DNA of 64,000 nucleotides, taken from positions 7,565 through 71,564 of the forward strand of contig JADFYH010000010.1 in the NCBI GenBank assembly GCA_015233135.1. Direction: 5' to 3'. The position numbers and the translations under genes are program-made. The DNA is from Deltaproteobacteria bacterium (GTDB lineage Bacteria; UBA10199; JADFYH01). Shown piece by piece: positions 25,259 through 43,466 of this stretch. Each line of letters begins with the position of its first letter. Within the stretch, counting starts at the first letter, position 1. Under the pieces are notes generated by a model, which worked only from the letters and a program-made list of their open reading frames with translations, did not search any database and was not told the origin of the DNA.

Positions 25259-25260
25259 CA

Positions 25261-25287
25261 TAGAGACAGGTTTTAAACCCGTCTCTA
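25261..25287 (+). terminator. possible intrinsic terminator after the GT4 gene
   Basis: tagagacagg-ttttaaa-cccgtctcta hairpin with one mismatch, starting 3 nt after the stop. The tail (cttgtcttgtcattt) is only moderately T-rich. Confidence 0.3.
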
Positions 25288-25303
25288 CTTGTCTTGTCAT
25301 TTA

Positions 25304-25373
25304 CATGGATTCGACTGGGCTCACCATGTCCCACTTGGTTCCAATTGGGACATGGTGAGGCCCTCGAACCATG
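25304..25373. other. long imperfect inverted repeat with a perfect 14-bp core stem
   Basis: ctcaccatgtccca (25320-25333) pairs with tgggacatggtgag (25346-25359) around a 12-nt loop. The outer arms catggattcga and tcgaaccatg extend it. Confidence 0.7.
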
Positions 25374-25414
25374 TAATGGATTTGTTAAATTTATTCCTGT
25401 GCTGAGTATAAATT

Positions 25415-27238: not shown

Positions 27239-27245
27239 ATCAAAT

Positions 27246-29165: not shown

Positions 29166-29170
29166 TATGG

Positions 29171-29240
29171 CCCTTTATTGGAGTGTGAGAGAAGAGTGAT
29201 CTTCTCAAAAGGAGATTGAGTGAGAAGATCTGAGCTAAAT
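29171..29240 (+). pseudogene. relic of the 3' end of a maf2-type gene (duplication scar)
   Basis: gccctttattggagtgtgagag...gatcttctcaaaaggagattgagtgagaagatctga parallels 27176-27238 (..LYWGMRVNDLLKRRLSGNI*). The frame is broken. Confidence 0.7.
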
Positions 29241-31169
29241 ATGAACTATTTCGAAAAAAACTTTGCTGTCCTTGAAACCACTCATCCCAAACTAGCCCAA
29301 AAAATAAGGGAAATAAAATACGTTCCCGAGCAATTGGTTGAAGTTTCTCCAGGCATTTTTGACCTCAAAGATGCCCAAGGGAAACTTCTTTATCAAGGGC
29401 AGCCCCTGCTAAAAGCAGAAGAGTATTTAAAAAAGACAAATCTTATTTCTCCGAAGTTTGTGGTTTTTTATGGTCTGGGTCTGGGGTATTCTTTCCAGCA
29501 ATTCTGCAAAAAATTCTCACAGAAATTTGAAGCAGCGATTGTGCTGGAACGGTCTCTTACTCTCTTTCGCTATTCGCTGGAACTAACTGATTGGACAGAG
29601 ATCCTTACTTCTCAAAAATTGCTTTTGTTGGTGGATGAGGAACTTGAAGCGCTGCAGGAAAAGCTTCAAGCCTTTTTTGCAGATGGAAATATGCTTGTCT
29701 TTATCAAGGACATGCCCCTGATTTATGAGGAGGTCTCTTTGGTCTGGGACAAGAAGGAAGATTATTATGTCTCTGTGGCCCAGTGTATGAAGGAACAAAT
29801 TGAACAGGTTTCTGAATTCATGGTTGGAGATTGGGAAGACAATTATCAAGGTTTTATGAATGTTGTAAATAATGTCTTTCATGCCCACCAGGTTCCTTCT
29901 TTCACTTGTTTACTGGAACGTTTCCGGGACTTTCCAGGTATTGTGGTGTCGACAGGGCCCTCGTTGAATCATTCGCTGGAATGGTTGAAAAAGGTACAGA
30001 ACAAGGCTGTGATTGCCTGTGCAGATTCAGCCCTGCGCATCTTACTCCAGCATGGGATTACCCCACATCTAGTTGGTTGTTTAGAGCGAATCAGTTGTAC
30101 CAGAAAATATTTCGAAGAATTTAACGATTTAAGGCGAACTTTTTTACTTAGCGATTTGAGCGTCTGGCCCGAAACCTATCAAAAGTATAGCGGGCCCAAA
30201 ATTAATTTTTTTCGTCCCTTAGGTCAACAGGGCTGGTTTTTCCCCAAAGAAATCTTAAGAAACGCAGGTAGTTCGGTGGCGCATGAACTTTTTTTTGTTC
30301 TTTGTTATATGGGTTGTTCTTCCGTTTTTCTTGTGGGTCAGGATTTGGCCTACGATCCTTACACTCACGCAGGTCACGCTCAAGGGGCTTCCTCCTTCCA
30401 GGAGGACTGTGACAAAAAAGAGCTGCAACACATTCAACAGCATTATGTTTCCGCTGGAAGCAAAGAGGTATGGGTGGAAGGTAATAATGAAAAACTCATT
30501 TTAAGTAGCCCAATTTGGAATAGTTTCAGGTTTTTTTTTGAAAGTATTCTCAAAAAAGAGGGGGTGGGGATCCATTGTTACAATGTAATTCCGAAGGAAT
30601 ACGGAGCTCGTTTAAAAAATGCAAAGTGGCTGGATCCTGATCAGGCCTTGGAATTTTTTAGTGAAGAAAGAGATGTATTTGCTCTTCTGAAAGAGAGTAT
30701 CGAACAATCTCCTGTAGAAGAGAAAGAAGTGTTTTTGGAAAAAATGAAAATGAAATTCCGGACAGCCCTGGGGTATCTAAGAAATTTTCAGGAAATCACT
30801 TTGGATATTTTGGATAGCATTTCTATTTTCCAGCATCGTTTTGATTTGCAACTTTTTGGTCTGGAAACTTATCGCCCACTTTTGCTTCGATTGGAGCAGA
30901 CGATCAATGAGTTGGAAAATATTCCTGAAAATCTCGAGGATAATTTCTTTGGCAATTTTCTTTTTCCACAAATTCAGGGCGAACTAATTCCCTTTTATCA
31001 AGGGATAGAAGCTGCGTTAAAACTGCCAGAACAGTCGACATTTCGTATTCGGGAACAAATCAAAATGCTGAGAACTTGGCTGAAGACGGTGCATTATGCC
31101 TGTGCAAGGATGGAGAATTTTATTCTTAAAAATTTGTCGGAAGAAAATCAGACACTTTTTGAAAGTTGA
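29241..31169 (+). CDS. maf: Maf/DUF115 family protein, paralogue 4 (tandem copy)
   Basis: ATG 29241 (MNYFEKNFAVL). The ORF-track GTG at 29220 lies in a relic of a maf 3' end. The C-terminal ~170 aa are nearly identical to paralogue 3. Confidence 0.75.
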   Translation: MNYFEKNFAVLETTHPKLAQKIREIKYVPEQLVEVSPGIFDLKDAQGKLLYQGQPLLKAEEYLKKTNLISPKFVVFYGLGLGYSFQQFCKKFSQKFEAAIVLERSLTLFRYSLELTDWTEILTSQKLLLLVDEELEALQEKLQAFFADGNMLVFIKDMPLIYEEVSLVWDKKEDYYVSVAQCMKEQIEQVSEFMVGDWEDNYQGFMNVVNNVFHAHQVPSFTCLLERFRDFPGIVVSTGPSLNHSLEWLKKVQNKAVIACADSALRILLQHGITPHLVGCLERISCTRKYFEEFNDLRRTFLLSDLSVWPETYQKYSGPKINFFRPLGQQGWFFPKEILRNAGSSVAHELFFVLCYMGCSSVFLVGQDLAYDPYTHAGHAQGASSFQEDCDKKELQHIQQHYVSAGSKEVWVEGNNEKLILSSPIWNSFRFFFESILKKEGVGIHCYNVIPKEYGARLKNAKWLDPDQALEFFSEERDVFALLKESIEQSPVEEKEVFLEKMKMKFRTALGYLRNFQEITLDILDSISIFQHRFDLQLFGLETYRPLLLRLEQTINELENIPENLEDNFFGNFLFPQIQGELIPFYQGIEAALKLPEQSTFRIREQIKMLRTWLKTVHYACARMENFILKNLSEENQTLFES

Positions 31170-31191
31170 GTAGGTTACGAAAGAAGTCTAA

Positions 31192-31899
31192 TCAGGCGAC
31201 CATTTTCCTTCCCAACATAAACGCTTCGGCTGCACAAAATCCGGCCATAGCTCCCCGATATTTTGCCAAGGCCTCGATGGCTTCATAAGATCGTAAATGA
31301 GGCCAGGCCCTCATCTCCAGGTGGTAGGCTTCCAGTGCTTTCATTTTTAACTCAAGAGTAGAAGTGATATCTTCAAACCATTGGGCCAAAAAAGCAGTTT
31401 GGGTGCTTTGAATTTGGTAGTCTGTACTAGAAGGGGTTTCAAAAAATAATATTTGTTGAATGGATGATCCGGGCAAGGCACGAGCCGCAGTGATGGCAGC
31501 TTGATGAGTAATTTGGTGGTCGATGTTGATATCATAGCCATGGTGGGTCCACAGAATATTAGGTTTTATTTTTTTTATGATAGGTTCAATTTTTTGAATA
31601 ATTTTTAATAGAGGAATTTTATCAAGTTGGTTGTCTGGAAAGTTTAAAAAAATGGGAATCTCTGTCCCCAAAATTTTAGCTGCATTTTTGGCTGCTTCTT
31701 TTAAATTTTTCAATTCGGGATTTTTTTTTGAGTTTCTATTTAACCCCTTGGTTAAGCCTCTGGAGGTTGCTCCCTCAGCTAAAATGACAGGATAAACTTC
31801 AGCTCCCTGCCGTGAATATTTTGCAATCGTTCCCCCACAACCGAGTATTTCGTCATCGGGATGGGAGGCAATAATAAGTATTATTTCTTTTTGGGTCAT
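31192..31899 (-). CDS. PIG-L/LmbE family N-acetyl-sugar deacetylase
   Basis: Carries the ASHPDDEILGCGGT zinc-binding motif and downstream HHGYDINIDH. Confidence 0.75.
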   Translation of the reverse strand: MTQKEIILIIASHPDDEILGCGGTIAKYSRQGAEVYPVILAEGATSRGLTKGLNRNSKKNPELKNLKEAAKNAAKILGTEIPIFLNFPDNQLDKIPLLKIIQKIEPIIKKIKPNILWTHHGYDINIDHQITHQAAITAARALPGSSIQQILFFETPSSTDYQIQSTQTAFLAQWFEDITSTLELKMKALEAYHLEMRAWPHLRSYEAIEALAKYRGAMAGFCAAEAFMLGRKMVA

Positions 31900-31913
31900 G
31901 AATCACCATTTCA

Positions 31914-32579
31914 TTAAATTTTTGTCGCAACCAAATCCCAAGTGGCAAGAGTGAAGGATTGATCGGGGATGAGTTGTTTTTTTATTTTGTGAGCCAAGTA
32001 TTCAATGTGAAAAATTTTAAACAAATCTTTTAGGTGTTGTACATCAGAAAAGTGTACGCGCCCCAATTTGGCAAACTGACCTTTTGTGAAGTGGCTTCGT
32101 GTATAAATATCTTCCTCTGGAAGCCCTTTGGGATATTCACTGTGTTCGGTTGAAAACCAATCTACCCCGATAAACTTCCCGTTAACATCGAGCAAGTCGT
32201 ATAATCTTTTTATGGTAGATAAAATTGCTGCAGTGGCGTTGTGAGTCAGAGCCCCTCTGTCAATAATGAGTTGAAACGGCCCCTCGAAAGGAAGCGGTTG
32301 AGTAAAATCTCCTGCTAAAATTTTCCCCTTGAGTTGGGGGTATTGCAGCTTTAATTTTTCTACTATGTGTGAACTCCCCTCAATTGCATAATAATCGGCT
32401 TCAAGATGCATGAATAATGGAATATTTGCCCCGGCCCCACAACCTATTTCCAAAACTCTAAAACTCTTTTTCAGAGACGAAGCATTGCGCATTACTAGGG
32501 ATACCAAATCGGACCAAGGGAAAATACTGAGGTGTGTGTTTTCTTGATAGCGTTCATTCCATTCATTTGAAAAAGTCAT
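31914..32579 (-). CDS. class I SAM-dependent methyltransferase
   Basis: Motif I VLEIGCGAGAN. 221 aa. Confidence 0.7.
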   Translation of the reverse strand: MTFSNEWNERYQENTHLSIFPWSDLVSLVMRNASSLKKSFRVLEIGCGAGANIPLFMHLEADYYAIEGSSHIVEKLKLQYPQLKGKILAGDFTQPLPFEGPFQLIIDRGALTHNATAAILSTIKRLYDLLDVNGKFIGVDWFSTEHSEYPKGLPEEDIYTRSHFTKGQFAKLGRVHFSDVQHLKDLFKIFHIEYLAHKIKKQLIPDQSFTLATWDLVATKI

Positions 32580-32588
32580 ATTTGTTCC

Positions 32589-33266
32589 TTAATTTAAAGA
32601 TGAAAATTCAGTGTTTGAAACATTCATCCAGGCATCTAAAATACTCAAGCAAGGTATAAAATTACCGTAGAGTTGAGGGTATTTCGTAGGTAAAAAATTT
32701 TGATATTCCACTTGGATCCCTTGCTCTTTAAATTTTTTTTCTTCCAGATAATTCTTACCCAAAGCCCCCGATAAGTAATGCGTGGCTGAAAAATGTTGGC
32801 AAAGATTCAGAATCAGATCCGATTTATCTCCCGAAATCGAAATATTGCTGCTTCGCACTAAGTGAGACTGAATTTGAAGCTCTTGAAGCCAAAAAAGCAA
32901 GTGTTCAAAACATAAATCCGAAAGGAAATCGAAGTTCCTTTGATACAGCTGTTGCAGTTTTGGATAGTTTGCTTCAAAAAAAGGAGCTTTGCGATAGTTT
33001 TGCTGAATAGTTTTTAAATGTTTATCTTTCCAAGCTTGAGTGGAATCAATACGGGTTTCGCTCAGATTAGATTGGGTATGGCCTTTCACAAGTACAGGAA
33101 TCGTTAGCCACAAGGCCCCTTGAGGAGTTTTGATTTTGTTGCGATTGATGAAACTGTTTTTTTCAAATTGGACGGTATCTAAAAAAACAAAGACATCACT
33201 ACGCTTAATTTTTTCCAGATAGCCCAGCCAAGGCAGATAAGCAGGTTGGTGCACCGAGATCCTCAT
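32589..33266 (-). CDS. WbqC-like family protein
   Basis: The N-terminus MRISVHQPAYLPWLGYLEKI is typical of WbqC-like proteins found in glycan clusters. ATGA overlap with the aminotransferase gene. Confidence 0.6.
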   Translation of the reverse strand: MRISVHQPAYLPWLGYLEKIKRSDVFVFLDTVQFEKNSFINRNKIKTPQGALWLTIPVLVKGHTQSNLSETRIDSTQAWKDKHLKTIQQNYRKAPFFEANYPKLQQLYQRNFDFLSDLCFEHLLFWLQELQIQSHLVRSSNISISGDKSDLILNLCQHFSATHYLSGALGKNYLEEKKFKEQGIQVEYQNFLPTKYPQLYGNFIPCLSILDAWMNVSNTEFSSLN

Positions 33267-34288
33267 GATTGGAGTGCTCCTAAAATTTGCTCAAGCTCCC
33301 GATCAGATAAAGAGGGGTAGAGCGGTAAAGAAAGAGTATTTTGGCACAGCTCATTTGCGTTTGGAAATAAGTGTGCAGGGCCTAGCAATTCTTGTTGTTC
33401 AATAGGAATAATGGTTTTTATTCCGAGTGAAAATAGTTTTTCTTTCCATTGTATTGCATCCTTTGTTTTCCAGACAGCGCGGTATCTTACCGAACTTTGT
33501 CCAGACTGAGGGAGTTCTTTCCCAATTAAATCGAGTCCTAAGCTTGAATATTTCTGAAAGATTTCTTCCCTTTTTTTAAGAAAATCTGGGAGTCTTTCGA
33601 GTTGAGCTCTTCCTATGGCGGCCTGCAATTCAGTCATCTGGAAATTAAAGCGATCTTGATTGTCATTTTTATTGTCAAAATAAATGTAATCTCGAAGGGT
33701 GTTGATGTACTTTTTATTCTTGGAAACAATCATCCCTCCCTGGCCACCACTGGTCATCAGTTTGGTGGCGTAGAAAGAAAAAATTCCAATTTCGCCGATG
33801 CTGCCTAATGCCTTGTCCTGTAGAGATGCTCCCAATGCCTGAGCACAATCTTCGATGATAAGTTTGGAGCTCACTTTCTGAAAGTCACAGGGGATCCCAT
33901 ATAAATGAGGGATAATTACAATTTCAGCAGCCGATTTTTCAGCTTGCTCCAAGTCAATATGAGGGGAGCTGGGAGCGGTATCGAGTATTACAGCTTCAGC
34001 ATTAGCGAGACGCACAGCCTGTTTTAGAGAAGAACAAACATAAGTGGGAAAAGAAACTTTTTTACCTTTTGCCTCTAGAACCAAGAGAGCTAGATAAAGA
34101 GCTGCGGATCCGCTGGAAACAGCTAGGGCGTGTCCTTCTGGGAGCTTTAAAAATTCACAAAATTCTTTTTCAAATAGAGGAATTTCTTCTCCACCGCAAA
34201 GCAGCTGACTTTCTAAAACTCTTCGAGAGGTCTCTATTTCGATTTTTCCAAGAGTCGGTCGATTGTGTGGGATAATTGTTTTATTCAT
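33263..34288 (-). CDS. DegT/DnrJ/EryC1/StrS-family sugar aminotransferase (PseC/LegC-like)
   Basis: SGSAALYLAL motif and the PLP-lysine region FSFYATKLMTSGGQGGMIV. 341 aa. Confidence 0.75.
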   Translation of the reverse strand: MNKTIIPHNRPTLGKIEIETSRRVLESQLLCGGEEIPLFEKEFCEFLKLPEGHALAVSSGSAALYLALLVLEAKGKKVSFPTYVCSSLKQAVRLANAEAVILDTAPSSPHIDLEQAEKSAAEIVIIPHLYGIPCDFQKVSSKLIIEDCAQALGASLQDKALGSIGEIGIFSFYATKLMTSGGQGGMIVSKNKKYINTLRDYIYFDNKNDNQDRFNFQMTELQAAIGRAQLERLPDFLKKREEIFQKYSSLGLDLIGKELPQSGQSSVRYRAVWKTKDAIQWKEKLFSLGIKTIIPIEQQELLGPAHLFPNANELCQNTLSLPLYPSLSDRELEQILGALQS

Positions 34289-34722
34289 TTTTTCTTGTAA
34301 TAAGCAGGATAAACTTTTGCAGGATTGCCTATCACCAGAGAATAGGGAGGAATGGTTTCCTGTCTGACCACCGTTCCTGCTGCAATGACGCTATGATGGC
34401 CAATTTTGGCCCCCCCTAAAATTGCACAGTGGCTACCCACGAAAACATTTTTTCCTAACTCAATTTTTTTTCTCAAAATTTTATTCTTTTTCCCGATACA
34501 TAAAAGGTGTGAATCTGCAGCATTGATTGTGACAAAAGAGGCGATATCGCAATAATTGCCTATTTTCACTTGAGTTCCCTTTGCATTCACCTCTGAAAAT
34601 GCCCCAATGTACACCCCTTTTCCAACCTTCGGTGTTCCTTTGATTAATACCAAGGGATGAAAAGGGTTGGGCAGAAAATCAATCATCTTTGCAAATAAAT
34701 TTTTAAAGAGATTCAGTTCCAT
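34285..34722 (-). CDS. hexapeptide-repeat (LbH) acetyltransferase
   Basis: 145 aa with a left-handed beta-helix repeat pattern (IGNYCDIASFVTINAADSH...VFVGSHCAILGGAKIGHHSVIAAGTVV). Confidence 0.7.
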   Translation of the reverse strand: MELNLFKNLFAKMIDFLPNPFHPLVLIKGTPKVGKGVYIGAFSEVNAKGTQVKIGNYCDIASFVTINAADSHLLCIGKKNKILRKKIELGKNVFVGSHCAILGGAKIGHHSVIAAGTVVRQETIPPYSLVIGNPAKVYPAYYKKK

Positions 34723-35770
34723 TTTTGAAATCAGACTCCTGTATCAAGGCGTTTTTTTCAATGTTTCGAGCTGCCTTTTTACCAATTACTTTTTCATAAA
34801 GCCCAGGAGGTAAGCCAGTTCCAGGCCTTTTGAGGCCTATATTCTCTAGGCTGAATAATTCATCTTTCAAAATTTTTCGTAACGAAACAATAGATCGGCG
34901 TGCAATTTTTTTCATTTCTTTTTCAGCAGCACTAGGTTCTAAATTTTCTGTTCCTAACAGGAGGTAGGCTTTGCGTATCGAGAGAACCCATTCTTTTAAT
35001 CCTTCCGGATTTTCTGAAAACCAATGGTCAGGGCCTTCAAGCTGCTGATTTAAGGTGAAATGTTTTTCAAAGACACAGGTGTTATAAGCAGTGGCTATCG
35101 AAGCAGCAAGGGGGCCTTGGGTGTGATCCGAAAAGCCTAGTAAAACGGAGGGATATAATTTGCGAAGTGGCACCAGTTTTTTTAAATTTACCGATGCAGG
35201 AGGCGTAGGATATTCGGAGGTACACAAAAGTAAAATGAGAGGATAGTTTTCGAAGAGATTTAAGCTCTGATGAATTTCTTCTTCATCGGCCATACCGCAA
35301 GATAAAATAATCGGAAGCTTGGTCTTTTTATACTCCTTCAAAAGCGGCAAATTATTAAAATCATCCGATCCTACCTTGATGGCAGGAATCCCTACTTCTA
35401 ACAACAATTCCAGATCTGAAATGTTTTGTGGGGTGGATAAAAATAAAATTCCGACTTCATCGCATTTCTTTTTGATTTTGAACCACTCTTCTCGAGAAAA
35501 CTCATACCTCTTGAACATCTCAATCATTGATTCTGTAATTTGTTTTCCCTGACTTTTATAAGTGAAAGTTTGGGTGTGGTTGGCCACAAATTCTTCTGCT
35601 TTGAAGGTCTGAAATTTTACTGCATCTACCCCCGATTCTTTGGCAACTTCTATCATTTTGAATGCCGTGTTCAGTTCGCCATTATGGTTAATTCCCGCTT
35701 CTGCAATTAGAAAGGGCTTTTCTCCAATTTCAACTCCTGCGAGATTAATTGTTTTAATAGGGGTGTTCAT
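34703..35770 (-). CDS. NeuB-family nonulosonic acid synthase (second copy, NeuB/LegI-like)
   Basis: FLIAEAGINHNG and AVKFQTF motifs with a C-terminal SAF domain. ATG 35770 sits behind a GGAGAG RBS. The ORF-track start at 35785 is a TTG overlapping pseI. Confidence 0.75.
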   Translation of the reverse strand: MNTPIKTINLAGVEIGEKPFLIAEAGINHNGELNTAFKMIEVAKESGVDAVKFQTFKAEEFVANHTQTFTYKSQGKQITESMIEMFKRYEFSREEWFKIKKKCDEVGILFLSTPQNISDLELLLEVGIPAIKVGSDDFNNLPLLKEYKKTKLPIILSCGMADEEEIHQSLNLFENYPLILLLCTSEYPTPPASVNLKKLVPLRKLYPSVLLGFSDHTQGPLAASIATAYNTCVFEKHFTLNQQLEGPDHWFSENPEGLKEWVLSIRKAYLLLGTENLEPSAAEKEMKKIARRSIVSLRKILKDELFSLENIGLKRPGTGLPPGLYEKVIGKKAARNIEKNALIQESDFKNGTESL

Positions 35771-35774
35771 TTTC

Positions 35775-36824
35775 TTACTCTCCAACCCACTCCCATTTCA
35801 TCGCCATTCCCTTCTTTAAATCTTGCTTCACTTTTTTACCCAATAATTCCTCATAATATTTAGGAGCCAAACCCAAGCCAGGTCGAATGGCTCGAAGATT
35901 TTTGGGGGTGAGTATTTCACCTGCTTTCATATTTTCACTAATGTAGAGTGAACGACGGAATTGAAGTGATTTTTTTTCTTGTTCAGAGGGGCCCAATTTT
36001 GTTTTTCCTAAGGCCGGAACAATTTTTTTAGATTCTTCCCTCAACATTTTCAACTCTTGTGGTTCTAGAGAGAAAGCAGAATCGACTCCTCCATCGCTAC
36101 GACTCAAGGTGAAATGTCGTTCAATGACTCGTGCACCCAGAGCAATAGAGGCCAGTGAAACTCCAATGCCCATTGTGTGATCTGAGAGCCCTACTTCACA
36201 TTGAAATCTTTGTTTAAGTAAATCGATAGCCAACAAATTGCTTTCTTCAGGAGGAGCAGGATAAGAACTTGTACACTTGAGCAAAATCAAATCCCTACAA
36301 CCCGCAGATCGGGCTGCGTCTACGGCTTCAGAAATTTCTTCCAGCGTTGCCAAGCCGGTTGAGATAATGAGTGGTTTTTTTGTCGCGGCCACTTTTTTGA
36401 TGAGAGGCAGGTGGATATTTTCAAAGCTGGCAATTTTGTAACAAGGCACATTCAACTTTTCGAGAAAATCTACCGCTGTTTCATCAAAGGGAGTACTGAA
36501 TCCAATCATACCCAATTCAGCACAGCGTTTAAATAGGGGTTCGTGCCATTCCCAAGGCGTGTGGGCCTCGTGATAGAGGTCATAGAGTGTTCTGTTTTTC
36601 CAAAGGCTATTTTTATCTTGAATAACAAATTCATTTTCGGACAGATTCAAAGTCATGGTATCCGCTGTGTAGGTTTGAAGCTTCAAAGCCTGTGCACCTG
36701 CTTGAGCGGCGGCTTCCACGATTTGAAGGGCACGAGCTAAAGATCCATTATGATTCCCGGACATCTCGGCGATGACAAAAGGATCTTCGTTTTCACCAAT
36801 GGAATATTTTCCAATTTGAATCAT
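35775..36824 (-). CDS. pseI: pseudaminic acid synthase PseI
   Basis: FVIAEMSGNHNGSL and ALKLQTYTADT motifs with a C-terminal SAF domain. ATG 36824 overlaps the pseG/H stop (ATGA). The ORF-track start at 36839 is a TTG. Confidence 0.8.
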   Translation of the reverse strand: MIQIGKYSIGENEDPFVIAEMSGNHNGSLARALQIVEAAAQAGAQALKLQTYTADTMTLNLSENEFVIQDKNSLWKNRTLYDLYHEAHTPWEWHEPLFKRCAELGMIGFSTPFDETAVDFLEKLNVPCYKIASFENIHLPLIKKVAATKKPLIISTGLATLEEISEAVDAARSAGCRDLILLKCTSSYPAPPEESNLLAIDLLKQRFQCEVGLSDHTMGIGVSLASIALGARVIERHFTLSRSDGGVDSAFSLEPQELKMLREESKKIVPALGKTKLGPSEQEKKSLQFRRSLYISENMKAGEILTPKNLRAIRPGLGLAPKYYEELLGKKVKQDLKKGMAMKWEWVGE

Positions 36825-38353
36825 AGGGGTTTTACCCAAATTTTGTTTTTTAATCGATATCCCGCTTTTGCAAAGGCCCTTTGCGAAACGATATTCTTCT
36901 CCTGGATTTCTGCCTTTAAAAATTTGGTCTTAGGATGATTTTTCTTCAACCAAGCTGCAGCATGGATGAGAATTTGTGTTCCGTAGCCCTGGCCTTTATT
37001 TCCGGGAACCAAATAGATGGAAGTGAGCGCTTCCTCACCCGAACCTGAATAATCATAACGCAATACCCCGACACTTTTGGCTTCTCTTTCTGCAATGAGG
37101 ATTTTTCGATGAGTATTCGACAAACTCTTTTCAAACCAGACTTTATGTGCTTTCCAGGAAATTTTTTTGGAATTGTATGAAGATTGGCGTGTCTCCGGAT
37201 GATTTCTCCATTCAAAAATATTTTGGCAATCTTCAAAAGTAGCAGGGCGCAGGGTTATTTTTTTTTCGGAGTGAAGGTTAAGAAGAAATGTAGCAACACG
37301 CGGAGCTCCCTTTGCATCCACGAGTTCCAAACTTTTTTTGGATAAACTTTGTACTTGCTCGGGATGAGCCAATAAAGATTCAATTTTTTCTCTTATTGTT
37401 TCTTCTGTGATTTCTTCTTTTTTGCCCAAATAAATCAAACGGCCTTCCTCTGCCATCGATTGCAGCAGAGCCTCCTGGTTATTGGAGATGCTCCAGGCTA
37501 GAGTGGGCACTCCCAGCGCTGCACGTTCCCAGGTGCTGACACCCCCTGCGCCTATCGCCAAATCGCTGAGCTTCAGAATTTGAGAAACCCTTTCTACCTC
37601 ACGATACAATTTGATTTGCGAATAGGGGGTGCAGAATTCAGACAAGATTTTCTGATGGGGATTTGCAGCGCCTAAAATGACCTGCAACTCCAAGGGTGCG
37701 GAAACCTTCAGGCAGGCCTTAATCGCTTTTAAACTTTCGTTGCTGGTATCCACCCCGCCAAAAAAAATACACAGCTTGGAAATTTTGCCTTCTCGAATTT
37801 TAAGATCTTTTCTCGCTGCACTAAATTCTTCACGAAGCAAGGCATAAGAGGGGCCCAGTAATAATTTACAGGTAGGAGGAGTGAGTGAGGGATATTTTTG
37901 ATGAAGTGCAGGCTGAAGATTTTGATCGAGAAGGAGGTCGCAAAGATGAGCACGATTGGCAAGATCATCGATGACGACAATGCTTTGAAAATGAGGAGCA
38001 AGCCTTTTCTCCCAGTTTTGATCCAGACCATAATGGTCAACAATCAGCGTTTCTCCAGCCTCCGCAAGCAAATCCATTGTTTCCTTCGCATCTACTTCTT
38101 GCGGCACTTCCAACCAGGCTTCATATTCATTTTTTGGATGGCTAATTCTTTGGGGATGTTTCTCTGGACTGGGAAGATCCAGACAAACAAAGCCTTGCTT
38201 GCAAATGAAGGCATTCAAATTGCCTGGATGTAAACGACAGATAAAGCAAACCTCGGCCCCCTTTTCTTTCAGTTCTTGCGCCAGGGTCAGGCAGCGCATC
38301 ACATGACCGGAGCCAATTTTGCGGGAAGCATCTGTACGAATAACAAATTTCAT
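36821..38353 (-). CDS. pseG: bifunctional PseG (UDP-2,4-diacetamido-2,4,6-trideoxy-beta-L-altropyranose hydrolase) / PseH (GNAT N-acetyltransferase) fusion
   Basis: N-terminus MKFVIRTDASRKIGSGHVMRCLTLAQEL (PseG-type GT-B). C-terminal ~145 aa are a GNAT (FEWRNHPETR...GNKGQGYGTQIL). The two domains join at an A9 tract. Confidence 0.75.
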   Translation of the reverse strand: MKFVIRTDASRKIGSGHVMRCLTLAQELKEKGAEVCFICRLHPGNLNAFICKQGFVCLDLPSPEKHPQRISHPKNEYEAWLEVPQEVDAKETMDLLAEAGETLIVDHYGLDQNWEKRLAPHFQSIVVIDDLANRAHLCDLLLDQNLQPALHQKYPSLTPPTCKLLLGPSYALLREEFSAARKDLKIREGKISKLCIFFGGVDTSNESLKAIKACLKVSAPLELQVILGAANPHQKILSEFCTPYSQIKLYREVERVSQILKLSDLAIGAGGVSTWERAALGVPTLAWSISNNQEALLQSMAEEGRLIYLGKKEEITEETIREKIESLLAHPEQVQSLSKKSLELVDAKGAPRVATFLLNLHSEKKITLRPATFEDCQNIFEWRNHPETRQSSYNSKKISWKAHKVWFEKSLSNTHRKILIAEREAKSVGVLRYDYSGSGEEALTSIYLVPGNKGQGYGTQILIHAAAWLKKNHPKTKFLKAEIQEKNIVSQRAFAKAGYRLKNKIWVKPL

Positions 38354-39127
38354 TTATCCCCTCACCGCTGAATTTCTTACAGCGATTCCCTGCCCCGCCA
38401 AATATTTCTTGGCTTCGGCCGGGGTTTGTTCCGTATAGTGAAAAACGGCCGCCGCCGCTACAGCAGTAGCCTTGCCCTGGGTTAAAGCTTCCAACATGTG
38501 TTGATAATTTCCTGCCCCGCCGGAAGCGATCACCGGAATTTTTACAGCCGCAGAGACTTTGCGAATCAATTCCAGATCATAACCTTGCATGCCTCCATCG
38601 CGTTCTATGGAAGTGAGTAAAATTTCTCCTGCCCCCCAGGCTTCCACTTCTTTTGCCCAAGCCAGTACTTCTTTTCCCGTTTCTTTTGACGCAGAATGGG
38701 AGTAGCAGTGATAATTTCCATCTGTTTCTTTTTTGGCATCAATGCTCACCACAATACACTGAGAGCCAAATCGCCTGGCGGCTTCCTGAATTAATTTTGG
38801 GTTTTCGTAAGCCGCAGAATTGATGCAAACTTTGTCGGCCCCCGCGAGCAAAAGTTTGCGGATATGATCCAGGGTTTGAATTCCGCCCCCCACGCAAAAA
38901 GGGACAAAACATTCGGAGGAAAACTCTTCGATGGCTTGATAATCGGGTTCCCGGTTTTCTTTGTAAGCAGAAATATCCACTAGAATAAGTTCATCCACAT
39001 CCCGGGTATTGTACACTTTAATTGCAGGTGTTACAGTTCCCACACGGCGCCAACTATCAAAACCTATGCCTTTGACGAGGCCGACGTCTTTCCAGAGTAG
39101 GGTGGGAATGATTCGAGTTTTTAGCAT
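38354..39127 (-). CDS. hisF: HisF-like imidazole glycerol phosphate synthase cyclase subunit paralogue (WbuZ-type)
   Basis: (beta/alpha)8 HisF motifs RIIPTLL, CVGGGI and ASGGAG. Sits in a glycan operon rather than a his operon. Confidence 0.75.
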   Translation of the reverse strand: MLKTRIIPTLLWKDVGLVKGIGFDSWRRVGTVTPAIKVYNTRDVDELILVDISAYKENREPDYQAIEEFSSECFVPFCVGGGIQTLDHIRKLLLAGADKVCINSAAYENPKLIQEAARRFGSQCIVVSIDAKKETDGNYHCYSHSASKETGKEVLAWAKEVEAWGAGEILLTSIERDGGMQGYDLELIRKVSAAVKIPVIASGGAGNYQHMLEALTQGKATAVAAAAVFHYTEQTPAEAKKYLAGQGIAVRNSAVRG

Positions 39128-39744
39128 AATGCTAGAAAATTTCTTAGCAATTGAAATCCTGCCTTAGAACTCTTTTCGGGATGAAACTGTACCCCCAGTA
39201 CATTTTCATGTCCGACACAAGAGACAAACTCACCGCAATAGGGTGTCTTTGCTAAAACGTGGGCAGAATTTTCAGGAATAAAATGATAACTGTGCACAAA
39301 ATAAAAATCAGAATGATTGGGAATTTTTTCAAAAAGTGGATGAGCAACCGCTTGCTGCATTTCATTCCAACCCACGTGAGGAATTCGCTCAGTTGCTCGC
39401 GGAAGCAGCCGTTTTACTTCTCCGGGAATCAGATTCAAACCGGAACATTCTTCTCCTTCAAAACCTTTGGAGGCCATCATCTGCATGCCCAAACAAATCC
39501 CCAGCATGGGAACTTTGTAATCGCGCACGGCGGAATCAATGGCTTCCAGCCATCCTCGCTCACGCAAATTTTTCATTCCGTCCCCAAAAGCCCCCACCCC
39601 GGGTAGAATGATTTTGGGAGCCGTCTTTAATTCACGAGGATCTTCGAGGGTTGTCACTTCCGCCTCGCACTCCTCCAGCGATCTGCGGAGTGATCCGAGA
39701 TTTCCCATACCGTAATCAATAAGCGTGACCTTGCGGATAGACAT
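39121..39744 (-). CDS. hisH: HisH-like glutamine amidotransferase subunit paralogue (WbuY-type)
   Basis: Class I GATase with GVGAFG, PMLGICLGMQMM (nucleophile Cys) and GVQFHPEKS. Confidence 0.8.
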   Translation of the reverse strand: MSIRKVTLIDYGMGNLGSLRRSLEECEAEVTTLEDPRELKTAPKIILPGVGAFGDGMKNLRERGWLEAIDSAVRDYKVPMLGICLGMQMMASKGFEGEECSGLNLIPGEVKRLLPRATERIPHVGWNEMQQAVAHPLFEKIPNHSDFYFVHSYHFIPENSAHVLAKTPYCGEFVSCVGHENVLGVQFHPEKSSKAGFQLLRNFLALC

Positions 39745-39746
39745 TC

Positions 39747-40898
39747 TTAAATATTATCCTCATTAATTTTTTGGAGGTTTCCCTTTTTATCCTTCACCAA
39801 ATTTCCCTTCGCGTCCGTCACAAAAAGTTTTTTGTTGGTAAAGCGATCACAGATCTTGATGAATTCTTCGATACTGATTTCTAAAGGCTCTAATATTTTT
39901 TCAATCGGTTTACCCAAATAAGTCCAAGGGAATTTCCCATCCAGTTTACGAATCATCTCCATCCCATCTTCGCGGGTGAGTCGACCGCGGCGGATATGCA
40001 GCGAAACCAGATCGGAGGCACGTCCAAAGGCAAATTTGAGGTATTTGAAATAATCGTGGATCCCCATCTGATGGTTGTCCATGTTTTCGTAATTGACCGC
40101 AGAACCTTCGATGACTGTAGGAGAGGTCTGCAATCCAAAGGCTTGTGAATAGAGGACGTTGCTGTACCCATCCCAGGGGATGAAATAACCCAAGAAAAGC
40201 CCAGTGACCCCCACGGATTGCAGCTCTTCATCGCTCGGATAAGTATAAGGGATGAGATCTTTTGCCTGAATACCCTCCAGGCCAATCATGTCGGAAACCC
40301 GCAGGCCCAGCAAGCCTCCAAATTCCTCTAACCAGCGGCGATTGAGCACATTGTTTTCGGCGGCTGTCGCAGGTCCTCCATATTCATTTTGAGAGTTCTC
40401 ACCCCAAATCAATAAAGGGATTTTAAGCTGAACCGCCAGGCGTACGGGGCTGGTAAAAATGGCCACATGTTCAGGCCAGGAAATATCCCCTACTTGAGTA
40501 AGGCCGATACGATTGAGCTTGCGACGCGTGACAGGGTTCGCACTCAACTCCAGATAATCAAAGCCCTGTTGTTTCAGGTTTTCAATATTTTTTCGACCCA
40601 AGTCTGATAGATCACAGGTGGTTGAAGTTATGATGAGAGGATTCATCCCCAATTGCTTTATTTTTAAGGCTTGGTAGCTACTATCTTTCCCTCCACTGCC
40701 CGGAACAATACAGTCCCAGTTGCTTCCCTTTTTGTTACGATAACGCTCCAAAACTTGATGGAGCTCCTTTTTACGGGAATCCCAATCTACAACCTGGCGT
40801 TTCTCATAGTTTCGGCAGGCATTACAAATCCCCTGATCATCGATAAACAAATCGGGCTTGGTGTTAGGCATGACGCAGCGCTTGCAGTATTGAATCAT
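39747..40898 (-). CDS. pseA: N-acetyl sugar amidotransferase (PseA/WbuX/WbpG family, PP-loop)
   Basis: N-terminal Cys cluster (CKRCVMPNTKP...CNAC) and PP-loop SGGKDSS. Lies immediately upstream of the hisH/hisF paralogues. Confidence 0.65.
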   Translation of the reverse strand: MIQYCKRCVMPNTKPDLFIDDQGICNACRNYEKRQVVDWDSRKKELHQVLERYRNKKGSNWDCIVPGSGGKDSSYQALKIKQLGMNPLIITSTTCDLSDLGRKNIENLKQQGFDYLELSANPVTRRKLNRIGLTQVGDISWPEHVAIFTSPVRLAVQLKIPLLIWGENSQNEYGGPATAAENNVLNRRWLEEFGGLLGLRVSDMIGLEGIQAKDLIPYTYPSDEELQSVGVTGLFLGYFIPWDGYSNVLYSQAFGLQTSPTVIEGSAVNYENMDNHQMGIHDYFKYLKFAFGRASDLVSLHIRRGRLTREDGMEMIRKLDGKFPWTYLGKPIEKILEPLEISIEEFIKICDRFTNKKLFVTDAKGNLVKDKKGNLQKINEDNI

Positions 40899-40963: not shown

Positions 40964-42853
40964 TCAAAATTTATTCACCAAATCCAAAACCACCGAGGCC
41001 CAAAAGGCCTCCTCTTTTGCCATCTGAAAAAGGATCTCTATTTTTCGGGCAATTTCATTGAAGTTGCCTTCTGTATCTTCTGTGCTTGAGAAGTATTGAA
41101 TCTGGCCTTGGATAAGCGTTCCCTGAATGATGGGATGAAAGAAATTCTGATAGGCGTCCAGATCTTCTGCGTAGTTTTTATCCTCGGTATAGCGCGAGGA
41201 GAATTCGTCTGCTTCTTTTAAAAATTGGGCATATTTTATTTTGCCTTCTTCCCAATTTTGCGCGGCTACCCAGGCTGAAAATTGTAGGGCCCTGCATTTC
41301 ATGGCGAAGGCTTGATTGTCGCCAATCAGGCGTTGGAGCGCCCGTTTGAGTGTATACATTTTTTGTTGAATCACTTTTCTTTTGATCTCCTGTTCGGCTG
41401 TCGAAGGAAGGGTCAATTTTTCTTTCAGCAGGGAGAGAGTCTCCAGTTTTTCAGGAGAGAGCTGTTGCAGCCAAGCCTCCGGGTCTATTCTTGGGCAGCC
41501 AGGAATTTTGGCCCCGTATTCGGGAGGAATGACATTGAATACCTTTCCTGCGTAAGCAGGAACCAGTTGTTCTGAGAAAGTTTTGAGAAAGGTAAACCAG
41601 AACAGGTTGCTACGAACAGGCTTTCCGTTATTTCCTTCTATCTCTAAAACTTTATTCCCTTCTTTTCTTAAATTCGCCATTACGGTTTGGGATTCCTTCC
41701 AAACCCCCGGGGCATGGCTTTCCAGGTTTTTGTCGTAACACAAATCCTGACCTACCAAGAAAATGCGACCACAACCCAAAAGTTCCAAAATCTTAAAGGC
41801 CGCATTAGCCGAAGAATGCCCCAGGCCCAATATGGGTTTCTCCAGGGGCAGCCAGCGACTTTGAAGAGAGGTCCCCAAAATATAACTGTTTAGACCCTTG
41901 TTTCCCGAAAAACATTTGGGATGGACATGGGGCGGCCCCACAAAGACATGGGGTGGCTTTTCAGAGAGATTGCAAAAAAAATCTCCCTGGGTTTCATCGC
42001 GTTCAATATTCAGCCATAAATGGGGATGAATACCGTGTTCAATCAACAGGGGAAGGGCCGAAGGGCAAGCAACCACAACGGCGTATTGCTGGGCTTCCTT
42101 GAGGTAGCTTAGACTTTTGGCCAGCGAGGGTCCTGAAGAAATGAGGATACCATCTTTCCCTTTAAATTGATCTTGGGCTTGAGCCAGGGCCGGCATCGCC
42201 AAGACCTCTTTTAAATTTTTCAAAACGTGCACCGTGCCGCGATAGGCATCGTAAGGATCTGCAAAAACACGATTAAAATGATGGGCGGTGGCCTTGGCAA
42301 AGCTTTCTTTGGCCTGGCTATAAAAATCACCATTCCAATGCAGGCTGGGAGAAAATTCTACAAACTCCACTGCATTTGCAAAGCGCAGCCAGGGTCCTTC
42401 CTCAAAGAAACGATTAAAAAATTGTTCGAGTTGAACAACATCATTGCCCAAAAACCAATGCACTTGAGGCACTTCAAACATGGGGGTGAAATCATTCACT
42501 TCCAGGGCTTTTTTAAAGAGATGGGGCATAGCTTCAATCACTAAAATGACCTGATTGAGAGGATGAGATTTTTTGGCGTATTCCAGCAGATGATGGCCCA
42601 GTCCTACCCCAAAAAAGATTAAGATCCGTGGATTTTTTAGGCTTAATGTTTGGGCAAATTCTTTTGAATATTGCTCCGCATTGGGGGAAGGATAATAGGG
42701 CTGCTCGGATCCATCCGCAAAATGGCAGATTAATTCTCTGGTACTTGGCCTAAATTTTAAGGCGGGGATTTCATTTAAATTGGAAACTAGTTCAGCAAGC
42801 TGAGGATGTTTGGTTTTGAGGCAGTTTAAGTTTTTTTGATAGAGGGAGCTCAT
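40964..42853 (-). CDS. maf: Maf/DUF115 family protein, divergent paralogue 5
   Basis: 629 aa with the core motifs GILISSGPSL, VVACPSALPLLIEHGIHPH, FLVGQDLCYD, IEGNNGKPV and NVIPPEYGAKIPG. Confidence 0.7.
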   Translation of the reverse strand: MSSLYQKNLNCLKTKHPQLAELVSNLNEIPALKFRPSTRELICHFADGSEQPYYPSPNAEQYSKEFAQTLSLKNPRILIFFGVGLGHHLLEYAKKSHPLNQVILVIEAMPHLFKKALEVNDFTPMFEVPQVHWFLGNDVVQLEQFFNRFFEEGPWLRFANAVEFVEFSPSLHWNGDFYSQAKESFAKATAHHFNRVFADPYDAYRGTVHVLKNLKEVLAMPALAQAQDQFKGKDGILISSGPSLAKSLSYLKEAQQYAVVVACPSALPLLIEHGIHPHLWLNIERDETQGDFFCNLSEKPPHVFVGPPHVHPKCFSGNKGLNSYILGTSLQSRWLPLEKPILGLGHSSANAAFKILELLGCGRIFLVGQDLCYDKNLESHAPGVWKESQTVMANLRKEGNKVLEIEGNNGKPVRSNLFWFTFLKTFSEQLVPAYAGKVFNVIPPEYGAKIPGCPRIDPEAWLQQLSPEKLETLSLLKEKLTLPSTAEQEIKRKVIQQKMYTLKRALQRLIGDNQAFAMKCRALQFSAWVAAQNWEEGKIKYAQFLKEADEFSSRYTEDKNYAEDLDAYQNFFHPIIQGTLIQGQIQYFSSTEDTEGNFNEIARKIEILFQMAKEEAFWASVVLDLVNKF

Positions 42854-42905: not shown

Positions 42906-43466
42906 ATGGCGACCAACCAAAATCTTCCTTTTAAACCTGTTGCTTTTCAAAAGGCAAAACTTGCGTACCTGTCATTCTCTGATGCAGATTCGCAAAATAC
43001 AAACATTACTTTACAAAAAAAGCCTGTTTTTTTTGAAAATTTTAACAAGATCAATTGCTCGGTCTGTGGAACCATTCATATTTTGGGTTTTGAAAAATCA
43101 AAACAAGTACTACCCGCTTCCATTCATTGTGCGCTTTGTCAGAGCTTGATTCCTATTGAAGCCTTTCGCGAACGAAAAACGAGACGCTCTTCTTTAGAAA
43201 AAAAGGTCCGCTTTCAGCAGGAAAAGAGGGGTATCTGTATAGCGAATGTCGTGGATTTTTCTCCTGCGGGCTTACGTTTATCTTCTCGCAAGCGGATTTC
43301 TCCCGATGGAAAAATTAAGGTTTACTGCGAAGATTTTAATGCATTAGGAGAAGCGGTGTGGATGCGCAAATTGGGGACTTTTATGGTCCCCACCTATGAA
43401 ATAGGAATTAAATTTGAAGAATTCCTCCCTCTGACTCGAGACGTGCTGCTGGGTCAGAGTGTTTGA
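42906..43466 (+). CDS. zinc-ribbon + PilZ domain protein (putative c-di-GMP receptor)
   Basis: CSVC...x22...CALC zinc ribbon. PilZ motifs RxxxR (RKTRRSS) and D/NxSxxG (DFSPAGL). Confidence 0.6.
   Translation: MATNQNLPFKPVAFQKAKLAYLSFSDADSQNTNITLQKKPVFFENFNKINCSVCGTIHILGFEKSKQVLPASIHCALCQSLIPIEAFRERKTRRSSLEKKVRFQQEKRGICIANVVDFSPAGLRLSSRKRISPDGKIKVYCEDFNALGEAVWMRKLGTFMVPTYEIGIKFEEFLPLTRDVLLGQSV

Follow-up and report, generated by a model that had tools for sequence, protein, structure and literature searches.

Pseudaminic acid (Pse) is made in Campylobacter jejuni and Helicobacter pylori by a canonical pathway comprising PseB, PseC, PseH, PseG, PseI and PseF. In mycothiol and bacillithiol biosynthesis, a PIG-L-family enzyme (MshB or BshB) removes the N-acetyl group derived from N-acetylglucosamine (GlcNAc) and the amine is re-acylated by MshC or BshC, and in mycothiol a GNAT (MshD) then acetylates the newly added amino acid. 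Elements that recall both routes meet in the stretch of DNA analysed here (the window), which covers 64,000 nucleotides (nt) of a Deltaproteobacteria bacterium (assembly GCA_015233135.1, contig JADFYH010000010.1). In a minus-strand sugar operon of the window, the gene for a canonical pseudaminic acid synthase, pseI, is followed by a second NeuB-family synthase gene (NeuB2) and by genes encoding an acyltransferase (LbH), an aminotransferase (DegT2), a WbqC-family protein, a methyltransferase and a PIG-L-family de-N-acetylase. Probably, the cell thereby produces a second nine-carbon sugar that is decorated differently, along a route not yet studied. The six genes are read here, with about an even chance of being right, as the distal half of a pseudaminic-acid pathway variant that is widespread but uncharacterised and has NeuB2 together with PIG-L and WbqC as its hallmark. 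The special feature of the window is that this variant stands in one operon with the canonical synthase. In window coordinates, the six genes are:

34703..35770, minus strand: NeuB2, second NeuB-family nonulosonic-acid synthase with a TIM barrel (PF03102, 240.9 bits) and a SAF/AFP domain (SAF, 33.8 bits)
34285..34722, minus strand: LbH, short (145 amino acids) left-handed beta-helix N-acyltransferase (Hexapep, 56 bits)
33263..34288, minus strand: DegT2, short (341 amino acids) DegT-family pyridoxal phosphate (PLP) aminotransferase (PF01041, 191.6 bits)
32589..33266, minus strand: WbqC-family protein (PF08889, 255.2 bits over 215 of 218 profile positions, gathering score 21.3)
31914..32579, minus strand: class I S-adenosylmethionine (SAM)-dependent methyltransferase (Methyltransf_25/11/12/23/31; SAM motif VLEIGCGAG)
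31192..31899, minus strand: PIG-L/LmbE-family de-N-acetylase (PF02585, 96.4 bits, gathering score 28.2; HPDDE metal motif)

Domain calls were based on Pfam gathering scores and NCBIfam equivalog cut-offs. All six open reading frames lie on the minus strand where the first-pass annotation had placed them, and every domain that it named was confirmed with Pfam and NCBIfam. Its reading of a second NeuB-type synthase immediately downstream of pseI likewise holds, the upstream neighbour scoring 496 bits with the PseI model TIGR03586 and NeuB2 carrying PF03102 and SAF. NeuB2 starts with ATG (an alternative TTG start lies at 35785) and contains the motif FLIAEAGINHNG; DegT2 retains the PLP-binding lysine (FSFYATK), and the metal-binding motif SHPDDE of PIG-L occupies residues 12-17. 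The PIG-L protein matches the BshB1, BshB2, MshB and Mca models weakly and misses the BshB/MshB cut-offs (62 bits versus 183-195). Family-invariant residues are retained in all six cassette proteins, and therefore none appears decayed.

NeuB2 belongs to the NeuB superfamily, both the NeuB TIM barrel (PF03102) and the C-terminal SAF domain (PF08666) being matched, and judged from identity and tree position it is a lineage apart from PseI and no PseI duplicate. It shares 32% identity with the PseI of the window, by which a recent duplication of pseI was ruled out as its origin. Its scores stay below the cut-offs of both the PseI model TIGR03586 (242.6 bits, cut-off 340.25) and the NeuB/LegI model TIGR03569 (340.4 bits, cut-off 399.65), and its three best characterised solved relatives are about equally distant, namely Neisseria meningitidis NeuB (NmNeuB, 180 bits), Bacillus subtilis SpsE (172 bits) and C. 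jejuni PseI (167 bits). A maximum-likelihood tree was built from 105 NeuB-family sequences, with PDB reference sequences taken from the search alignments. The NeuB2 clade is monophyletic in this tree (83 tips, support 0.89) and separate from a PseI clade (support 1.0) that holds C. jejuni PseI (8h2c), the PseI of the window and the PseI proteins of loci L054 and L067; N. meningitidis NeuB falls outside the NeuB2 clade, and the sister group of NeuB2 contains further uncharacterised NeuB paralogues. The placement that the first-pass annotation had left to be made thus puts NeuB2 in a clade of its own (0.89), with no tight clustering with PseI.

The active-site region of NeuB2 carries clade-specific changes. 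The clade motifs E[AV]GINHNG and GPDHWFSE are both present in the window protein, and Glu134 of NmNeuB corresponds to Asp in the clade (GSDDF), which also has the motif GPDHW. Residues H216, H237 and R315 of NeuB2 are invariant in the clade alignment and align with H215, H236 and R314 of NmNeuB, which we take to be the metal-binding histidines (H215 and H236) and the arginine of the AFP domain (R314).

A third NeuB-family paralogue ('NeuB3', about 356 amino acids) lies between PseC and PseF in at least eight operons of this type (L005:7104-8174, L028:7218-8288, L039, L040, L051, L057, L026 and L085:6377-7447, the last from a Candidatus Kuenenia metagenome-assembled genome (MAG)). NeuB3 scores under both the PseI and the NeuB cut-offs and is placed in the sister group of NeuB2, and its operons indicate that paired synthases recur even without a canonical PseI. 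The Aeromonas flm/neuB pseudaminic acid synthases were considered as possible clade members and set aside: an A. sobria query matched only A. sobria and A. allosaccharophila relatives (97-71% identity), the next matches belonged to other taxa at no more than 69%, and no experimental tie was found.

The module was defined by the motifs E[AV]GINHNG and GPDHWFSE together with WbqC and PIG-L genes in the same operon, and the window qualifies. A scan of one genome per species found NeuB2 relatives in at least 583 species genomes spanning many bacterial phyla and Thaumarchaeota, including Fibrobacteria, Nitrospirota, Burkholderiales, Ca. Accumulibacter, Pseudoalteromonas, Aeromonas sobria, Pseudomonas, Chromobacterium, Chlorobium, Pelagibacteraceae, Lachnospiraceae and Nitrosopumilales. 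Thousands of proteins matched NeuB2 in a protein search; the best 120 are all 58-65% identical, with Paenibacillus, Cohnella, Pseudolabrys and Thaumarchaeota among the named organisms. Eighty related loci were then mapped by phmmer, using the window proteins and a few locus proteins as queries. The search for this gene set in other genomes, proposed with the first-pass annotation, showed that NeuB2 and the other five genes are found together across many phyla, the recurrent order being PseB-PseC-PseF-PseG-NeuB2-acyltransferase-(DegT2)-WbqC-(TylF)-methyltransferase-PIG-L.

Downstream frequencies refer to the 60 loci with enough downstream sequence and upstream frequencies to the 62 with enough upstream sequence. 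WbqC is present in 57 of the 60 NeuB2-clade loci (95%) and PIG-L in 58 (97%), LbH follows with 78%, and methyltransferase homologues reach 65% at a strict threshold. DegT2, found in 62%, is an optional member of the module. A TylF-type O-methyltransferase occurs in 22%, that is, in 13 of 37 loci with DegT2 and in none of the 23 without it. Upstream, PseG (87%), PseB (82%) and PseC (87%) are the usual partners. The gene set described as a six-gene tailoring cassette in the first-pass annotation is therefore real, but its status as an add-on to the Pse pathway is not borne out, since in about 80% of the related loci the six genes form the tail of a complete PseB/PseC/PseG operon with NeuB2 as its sole synthase. 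In L077, the nearest relative with data, the order is PseB-PseC-NeuB2-LbH-DegT2-WbqC-TylF-methyltransferase-PseG-PseF-PIG-L, and no canonical PseI was found nearby.

Because the PseB, PseC and PseG partners pass equivalog cut-offs, the module is, as far as such profile models can tell, Pse-type and not Leg/Neu-type. In Chromobacterium haemolyticum (L028), PseB scores 551 bits (cut-off 408), PseC 523 (423) and PseG 264 (154), and the LegB model reaches 72 bits; none of five Pfam-annotated related loci holds a NeuC/LegG-type 2-epimerase (PF02350). By its domain content, the gene following NeuB2 is a variable N-acyltransferase slot, filled among 81 loci by LbH in 58 (fused to DegT2 in 4), by a formyltransferase in 6 and by a PseH-like GNAT in 4, three Accumulibacter species among the last.

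Some further regularities were observed in these loci. Scored against the window protein, the WbqC homologues of the 60 loci fall into two classes, one at about 250-300 bits and one at about 160-200 bits, and it is the latter that occurs with TylF. The front half of the operon repeatedly contains an aldo/keto reductase and a class III aminotransferase (Aminotran_3), which in many cases forms one protein with the PseF-like cytidylyltransferase (L004/L008, L017, L024, L030, L031, L044, L054 and L064). Aeromonas 'group I' flagellar glycosylation islands contain a deacetylase, a methyltransferase, a class III aminotransferase and an aldo/keto reductase with no functions assigned (PMC7874193).

How the module compares with the canonical Pse pathway can be read from its gene order. 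The related loci keep to the classical order, with PseB, PseC and PseG at equivalog level, a cytidylyltransferase resembling PseF and a NeuB-family synthase after PseG. In contrast, the synthase is of another clade, PseH is usually replaced by an LbH protein, a formyltransferase or a GNAT encoded after the synthase, and the canonical pathway has no counterpart of the near-obligatory WbqC, PIG-L and methyltransferase. The likeness to mycothiol and bacillithiol synthesis is, by analogy, one of logic and not of membership. The PIG-L protein of the module weakly matches the BshB/MshB models and WbqC is found fused to GNATs, whereas WbqC shows no detectable relationship to MshC or BshC beyond a sub-threshold resemblance to the HUP fold; the substrates there are GlcNAc-inositol and GlcNAc-malate, whereas a nucleotide-linked 6-deoxy-diamino hexose is proposed here, with no thiol product. 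In the Sps system of B. subtilis (SpsE, PDB 1vli), a NeuB-family synthase is likewise paired with a PseG-like hydrolase without a NeuC-type epimerase, and SpsE has the EAGINH and DH motifs in common with NeuB2, although the tree places SpsE loosely with the PseI clade. To our knowledge, the sps operon holds no WbqC or PIG-L. Dubois and colleagues are said to have reported in 2020 that the Sps product is legionaminic acid (Leg).

Exchange of sugar N-acyl groups has been described for other systems. In the Wbp/Vim linking-sugar pathway of Porphyromonas gingivalis and Tannerella forsythia, VimE and VimA replace the C2 N-acetyl group by serine or glycine (PMC7468200). This is an experimentally supported precedent for a swap of acetyl for an amino acid at C2, but it employs a CE4 esterase and a FemAB/GNAT-like transferase where the module has PIG-L and WbqC, and its sugar is a 2,3-diamino uronic acid and not a nonulosonic-acid precursor. 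Clostridium botulinum makes Leg5GluNMe7Ac (cited in PMC13317340), a sugar which shows that N5 can bear a non-acetyl, methylated aminoacyl group. Both there and in the Campylobacter ptm system (PtmG amidotransferase, PtmH methyltransferase), N5/N7 acyl groups of flagellin nonulosonic acids are edited and methylated by genes of the sugar operon. Unlike the module, these are Leg pathways, and no PIG-L or WbqC is reported for them in the literature found.

Ca. Kuenenia stuttgartiensis provides a further comparison. A cytidine monophosphate (CMP)-nonulosonic acid with a free amine and a formyl group was detected in it by mass spectrometry, and the corresponding cluster encodes a deacetylase (10.64898/2026.04.20.719630). 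A cluster containing a deacetylase thus yields a sugar minus one N-acetyl group, and a gene of the NeuB2 clade, sharing 64% identity with the A. sobria query from that clade, occurs with LbH and WbqC in a Kuenenia MAG. The cluster of the preprint is, however, Leg-like (legB/legC/legG) with a formyltransferase and differs from the NeuB2 locus L085. The free-amine sugar was therefore not assignable to the module, L085 not being that Leg-like cluster. No PIG-L was found in the 18-kb contig of L085 (SOES01000060.1), and a B12-binding radical SAM enzyme (L085:10661-11965) lies between LbH and WbqC, in the position that DegT2 holds elsewhere. Literature searches turned up no publication that connects WbqC, PIG-L or LmbE with nonulosonic acids, and no described pathway for the cassette, to which the first-pass annotation had likewise assigned none.

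The proteins flanking the cassette in the window belong to the same flagellar sugar island:

35775..36839 (ATG at 36824), minus strand: PseI, canonical pseudaminic acid synthase (TIGR03586, 496.1 bits, cut-off 340.25)
36821..38353, minus strand: PseG (UDP-sugar hydrolase) fused to a PseH-like GNAT, the sole PseG of the window
38354..40898, minus strand: WbuX-type N-acetyl sugar amidotransferase with HisH- and HisF-like subunits (TIGR03573, 331.8 bits, cut-off 203.2)
40964..42853, minus strand: maf5, Maf-type flagellin glycosyltransferase (PF01973, 115.8 bits; Maf_flag10_N; PseD-domain model matches)
22038-31169, plus strand: four further Maf paralogues, converging on the sugar operon

PseI matches C. 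jejuni PseI (PDB 8h2c) with 308 bits. In the fusion protein, the PseG part (residues 1-298) exceeds its cut-off (TIGR03590, 288.9 bits versus 153.55) and the PseH-like part (residues 369-503) stays below its own (TIGR03585, 63.7 bits versus 93.1). WbuX, HisH and HisF, predicted to form an acetamidino group, open the tight operon, with maf5 65 nt upstream of it. From 42853 to 31192 the minus-strand order is maf5, WbuX, HisH/HisF, PseG-PseH, PseI, NeuB2, LbH, DegT2, WbqC, methyltransferase and PIG-L. Junctions from wbuX through PIG-L range from -20 to +14 nt (pseI/NeuB2 +4, NeuB2/LbH -20, LbH/DegT2 -4, DegT2/WbqC -4, WbqC/methyltransferase +9, methyltransferase/PIG-L +14), and the WbqC and PIG-L genes lie 1.4 and 2.8 kb downstream of NeuB2 in this operon. 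The term 'translationally coupled' used in the first-pass annotation appears a fair description of such packing. Promoter- and terminator-like consensus matches across the cassette region were no more frequent than in shuffled sequence, and a cassette split by internal promoters or terminators was rejected, the matches being at chance level.

A canonical PseI next to the module, as in the window, is rare. Among 51 loci with both flanks it adjoins the module in one, from Pseudoalteromonas (L054), and a further case was seen on a short contig from Lentisphaera (L067); in ten other loci there is an additional NeuB paralogue that is not canonical. L054, on the complete chromosome of a Pseudoalteromonas sp. 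(OZ240679.1, 3464126-3485136), is the best analogue of the window and comes from a cultivable genus. Its module reads PseB-PseC-aldo/keto reductase-PseF-class III aminotransferase-PseG-NeuB2-LbH-DegT2-WbqC-PIG-L, and beside it lie a PseGH fusion, PseI, Maf, HisF, HisH and WbuX, together matching in gene content the upstream half of the sugar operon in the window. The separate acyltransferase, UDP-hydrolase and synthase genes of L054 imply two different UDP-hexose intermediates. The window, in contrast, has a single PseG and lacks the early genes nearby.

Loci without a synthase bear on the point at which tailoring acts. In L088 (L088:3194-9140; also L089 and L090), a Wzm/Wzt polysaccharide locus without any NeuB encodes, in order, a methyltransferase, an 845-amino-acid fusion of a PglF-like 4,6-dehydratase and a DegT aminotransferase, PIG-L, a methyltransferase and a GNAT-WbqC protein. 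The occurrence of the tailoring set in these loci implies that it would be able to act on UDP-2-acetamido-4-amino-4,6-dideoxyhexose. L088 resembles a hexose-level version of the set. Taken with the tight linkage of NeuB2 to WbqC and PIG-L, which fits a synthase co-adapted to their product, the gene content of these loci suggests that editing precedes condensation, at the UDP-hexose stage, and does not act on the finished nine-carbon sugar. The suggestion of the first-pass annotation that deacetylation is followed by re-acylation or methylation is taken up here, with the genomic context pointing to the UDP-hexose as the molecule acted on. PIG-L, MshB and BshB remove the N-acetyl group of GlcNAc-derived sugars; the likely target in the module is accordingly the N2-acetyl group, a position that corresponds to N5 in the nine-carbon sugar.

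The part assigned to WbqC is argued from parallels. The family presumably takes its name from a gene of the Escherichia coli O121 cluster, and it comprises 12,421 clusters at 50% identity (E<=0.001). Three cluster representatives are GNAT-WbqC fusions with an N-terminal GNAT (P0240, P0248 and P0307; loci L086-L090). Tandem WbqC-WbqC proteins of about 490 amino acids were also seen (P0208 and P0262). The O antigen of E. coli O121 carries amide-linked N-acetylglycine (PMC7685785). By analogy only, the GNAT fusions, this N-acetylglycine and the logic of MshB-MshC-MshD suggest that WbqC may couple the freed amine to another acyl or aminoacyl group. A bolder version, which is tentative and rather doubtful, holds that WbqC is a new nucleotide-dependent amide ligase that, together with PIG-L, a capping acyltransferase and the methyltransferase, would swap the GlcNAc-derived N-acetyl group of UDP-2-acetamido-4-amino-4,6-dideoxyhexoses, NeuB2 being the dedicated synthase of N5-modified pseudaminic acids.

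A second or derivative nonulosonic acid, as first proposed for this operon, is the natural reading given the separate synthase lineage and the co-travelling genes. In the scheme envisaged here, the operon would comprise two branches fed by one precursor, UDP-4-amino-4,6-dideoxy-L-AltNAc, made by PseB and PseC encoded outside the window. The first branch would run through the PseH domain, the PseG domain and PseI and then WbuX/HisH/HisF, with Pse5Ac7Ac and its acetamidino form as predicted products. For the second, we infer the substrate, the order of steps, the chemistry of WbqC and the product from what is observed, namely the gene identities, the separation of the clade, its conservation and linkage, the Pse-type partners and the occurrence of the PIG-L, methyltransferase, acyltransferase and WbqC set without NeuB. 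LbH would N4-acylate the UDP-hexose, PIG-L would strip the GlcNAc-derived N2-acetyl group, WbqC would re-substitute the freed amine and the methyltransferase would finish the group; after removal of UDP, NeuB2 would condense the altered hexose with phosphoenolpyruvate to a Pse-type sugar with a non-acetyl group at N5. A PseF encoded elsewhere may activate both sugars, and the six Maf paralogues may transfer both to flagellin. Two differently N-acylated Pse-type sugars for six Maf transferases are the most likely outcome, and the fuller statement, with two branches and NeuB2 as dedicated synthase of a second, N-acetyl-exchanged Pse-type sugar, has in our estimate an evenly balanced chance of being correct.

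Several points weigh against this two-branch scheme. The only PseG of the window is fused to PseH, and no pseB, pseC or pseF homologue was found within the 64-kb window, so that the second branch would have to share a hydrolase whose expected specificity is for the di-N-acetyl sugar. Nor does the scheme offer DegT2 an obvious keto substrate. The slot enzyme is the only acyltransferase in most related loci, and N4 acylation and capping of a new N2 group are therefore not both possible there, leaving its target ambiguous. The ligase role of WbqC is an analogy only: its AlphaFold (AF2) model is confident (predicted local distance difference test score 92.8), and Foldseek returned no PDB match at E<=0.001. 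The best match, sub-threshold, was TagD of the HUP-type fold (E 0.014, template-modelling scores 0.30/0.52), and other weak ones were universal stress proteins and two class I tRNA synthetases (GlnRS and TyrRS). Phmmer and a 43-sequence WbqC profile found nothing meaningful in the PDB, the profile giving no match below E=0.9, and Pfam at E<=10 gave no second family for WbqC. The literature found contains no experiment on any member of the module.

Further counter-evidence comes from Ca. Accumulibacter, species of which carry PseB-PseC-PseF-PseG-NeuB2-GNAT-WbqC-methyltransferase-PIG-L. An Accumulibacter enrichment contained mainly CMP-NulOAc2, identified as Pse5Ac7Ac (preprint 10.64898/2026.04.20.719630). 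If the NeuB2 cluster makes this sugar, then WbqC, the methyltransferase and PIG-L are silent or leave the mass of the CMP-sugar unchanged. The observation is not decisive, since Accumulibacter genomes hold several synthases.

This result bears on the rival explanation that fares best, in which NeuB2 is redundant, arrived with a mobile tailoring block and makes the same Pse5Ac7Ac as PseI, while PIG-L, WbqC, the methyltransferase, LbH and DegT2 edit the free, CMP-activated or transferred sugar. The SugarBase preprint reports Pse5Ac7Ac in module-carrying Accumulibacter and, as a further point against the scheme preferred here, puts N-modifications, including the Kuenenia deacetylation, at the level of the CMP-sugar (10.64898/2026.04.20.719630); the single PseG of the window and the genuine Pse enzymes that accompany NeuB2 are likewise compatible with late editing. 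If editing followed condensation, however, there would be no need for a synthase clade of its own with 95-97% linkage to WbqC and PIG-L. The PIG-L/methyltransferase/GNAT-WbqC set also occurs in a NeuB-free locus, and in L054 the PseG, acyltransferase and synthase genes are kept as two adjacent sets. Late editing is therefore considered unlikely.

The behaviour of DegT2 and LbH raises another alternative. DegT2 scores 133 bits on the PseC model, below the cut-off of 423.5, and its closest solved relatives are PDB 7B0D and 7B0M, for which no paper was found. LbH-DegT2 fusions at four loci imply that the amine made by DegT2 is then acylated. If such consecutive steps on one nitrogen took place on the PseB keto-sugar with opposite C4 stereochemistry, or if NeuB2 attacked the other face of the aldehyde, the product would be an isobaric isomer of Pse, such as a 7-epimer or a 4-epimer of the fusaminic-acid type. 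The window offers two aminotransferase/acyltransferase options and two synthases, the GINH motif of NeuB2 is common to NeuB/SpsE-type enzymes whereas PseI has SxNH, and an isobaric product would be compatible with the 'NulOAc2' signal. But DegT2 is missing in 38% of loci while PseC is present in 87% regardless of it, the near-universal WbqC and PIG-L would be left without a role, and the Accumulibacter sugar co-eluted with a Pse standard (10.64898/2026.04.20.719630). Such an isomer is improbable.

It is very improbable that PIG-L, the methyltransferase, LbH, DegT2 and WbqC make a tailored 2,4-diamino-2,4,6-trideoxyhexose which is itself transferred, for example by the GT2 or GT4 proteins of the island, with NeuB2 functionally unrelated. 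The tailoring set does occur in the NeuB-free polysaccharide locus of L088-L090, and the island of the window does encode a GT2-TPR protein and a GT4, but the linkage of NeuB2 to WbqC and PIG-L (95-97% of 60 loci in unrelated phyla), usually in one overlapping operon with PseG and PseF, would remain unexplained. Least probable of all is the Leg/Neu-type second sugar raised in the first-pass annotation, with NeuB2, LbH and DegT2 as equivalents of LegI, LegH and LegC: the NeuB/LegI model does give NeuB2 a higher score than the PseI model (340 versus 243 bits), and JGI names many clade members 'N,N'-diacetyllegionaminate synthase' (automatic names), but this assignment was ruled out because equivalog cut-offs are missed by NeuB2 (TIGR03569), by DegT2 (LegC model TIGR04181, 117.4 bits, cut-off 420) and by LbH (NeuD/PglB/VioB model TIGR03570, 52.5 bits, cut-off 160.8, N-terminal domain missing), while the related loci carry PseB (the inverting dehydratase), PseC and PseG above theirs, with the LegB model at 72 bits and no PF02350 epimerase in the five Pfam-annotated loci.

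Elsewhere, the window contains flagellar export and hook genes, fliA, the GT2-TPR protein, the GT4, the Maf paralogues and housekeeping genes. Similarity of FlhA places the organism in an uncultured lineage, the nearest proteins coming from MAGs labelled Myxococcota or Deltaproteobacteria (62-69% identity) and those of Bdellovibrionota reaching about 52-54%. The plus-strand Maf block and the minus-strand sugar operon converge with 22 nt between their stop codons (31169-31192), and a consensus scan found no terminator-like hairpin between these stops. Two large minus-strand open reading frames flank the housekeeping block (43454-45607, 717 amino acids; 52206-54200, 664 amino acids), neither with an NCBIfam match at E<=1e-5.

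The nonulosonic acids of flagella, S-layers and capsules affect motility and the way in which phages and the immune system recognise the cell. In nature, many of them bear non-acetyl groups at N5, including hydroxybutyryl, acetimidoyl and N-methyl-glutamyl, and enzymes that remove the GlcNAc-derived N5-acetyl group and install such groups were not identified in the literature found. The module, which combines a synthase clade of its own with a deacetylase and an orphan enzyme family thousands strong, is a candidate answer for this exchange. Hundreds of species carry it, among them cultured Pseudoalteromonas, Chromobacterium, Aeromonas, Noviherbaspirillum and Paenibacillus as well as ammonia-oxidising archaea, and the question is thus directly testable. 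The window itself represents a natural experiment, since canonical and NeuB2-type synthases stand in one operon beside six Maf transferases. If WbqC acts as proposed, the replacement group would be, for example, an aminoacyl or an N-methyl- or N-acetyl-aminoacyl group, and the route would be a non-homologous parallel to MshB-MshC-MshD. N5-modified pseudaminic acids would then form a large class, unrecognised until now, in bacteria and ammonia-oxidising archaea.

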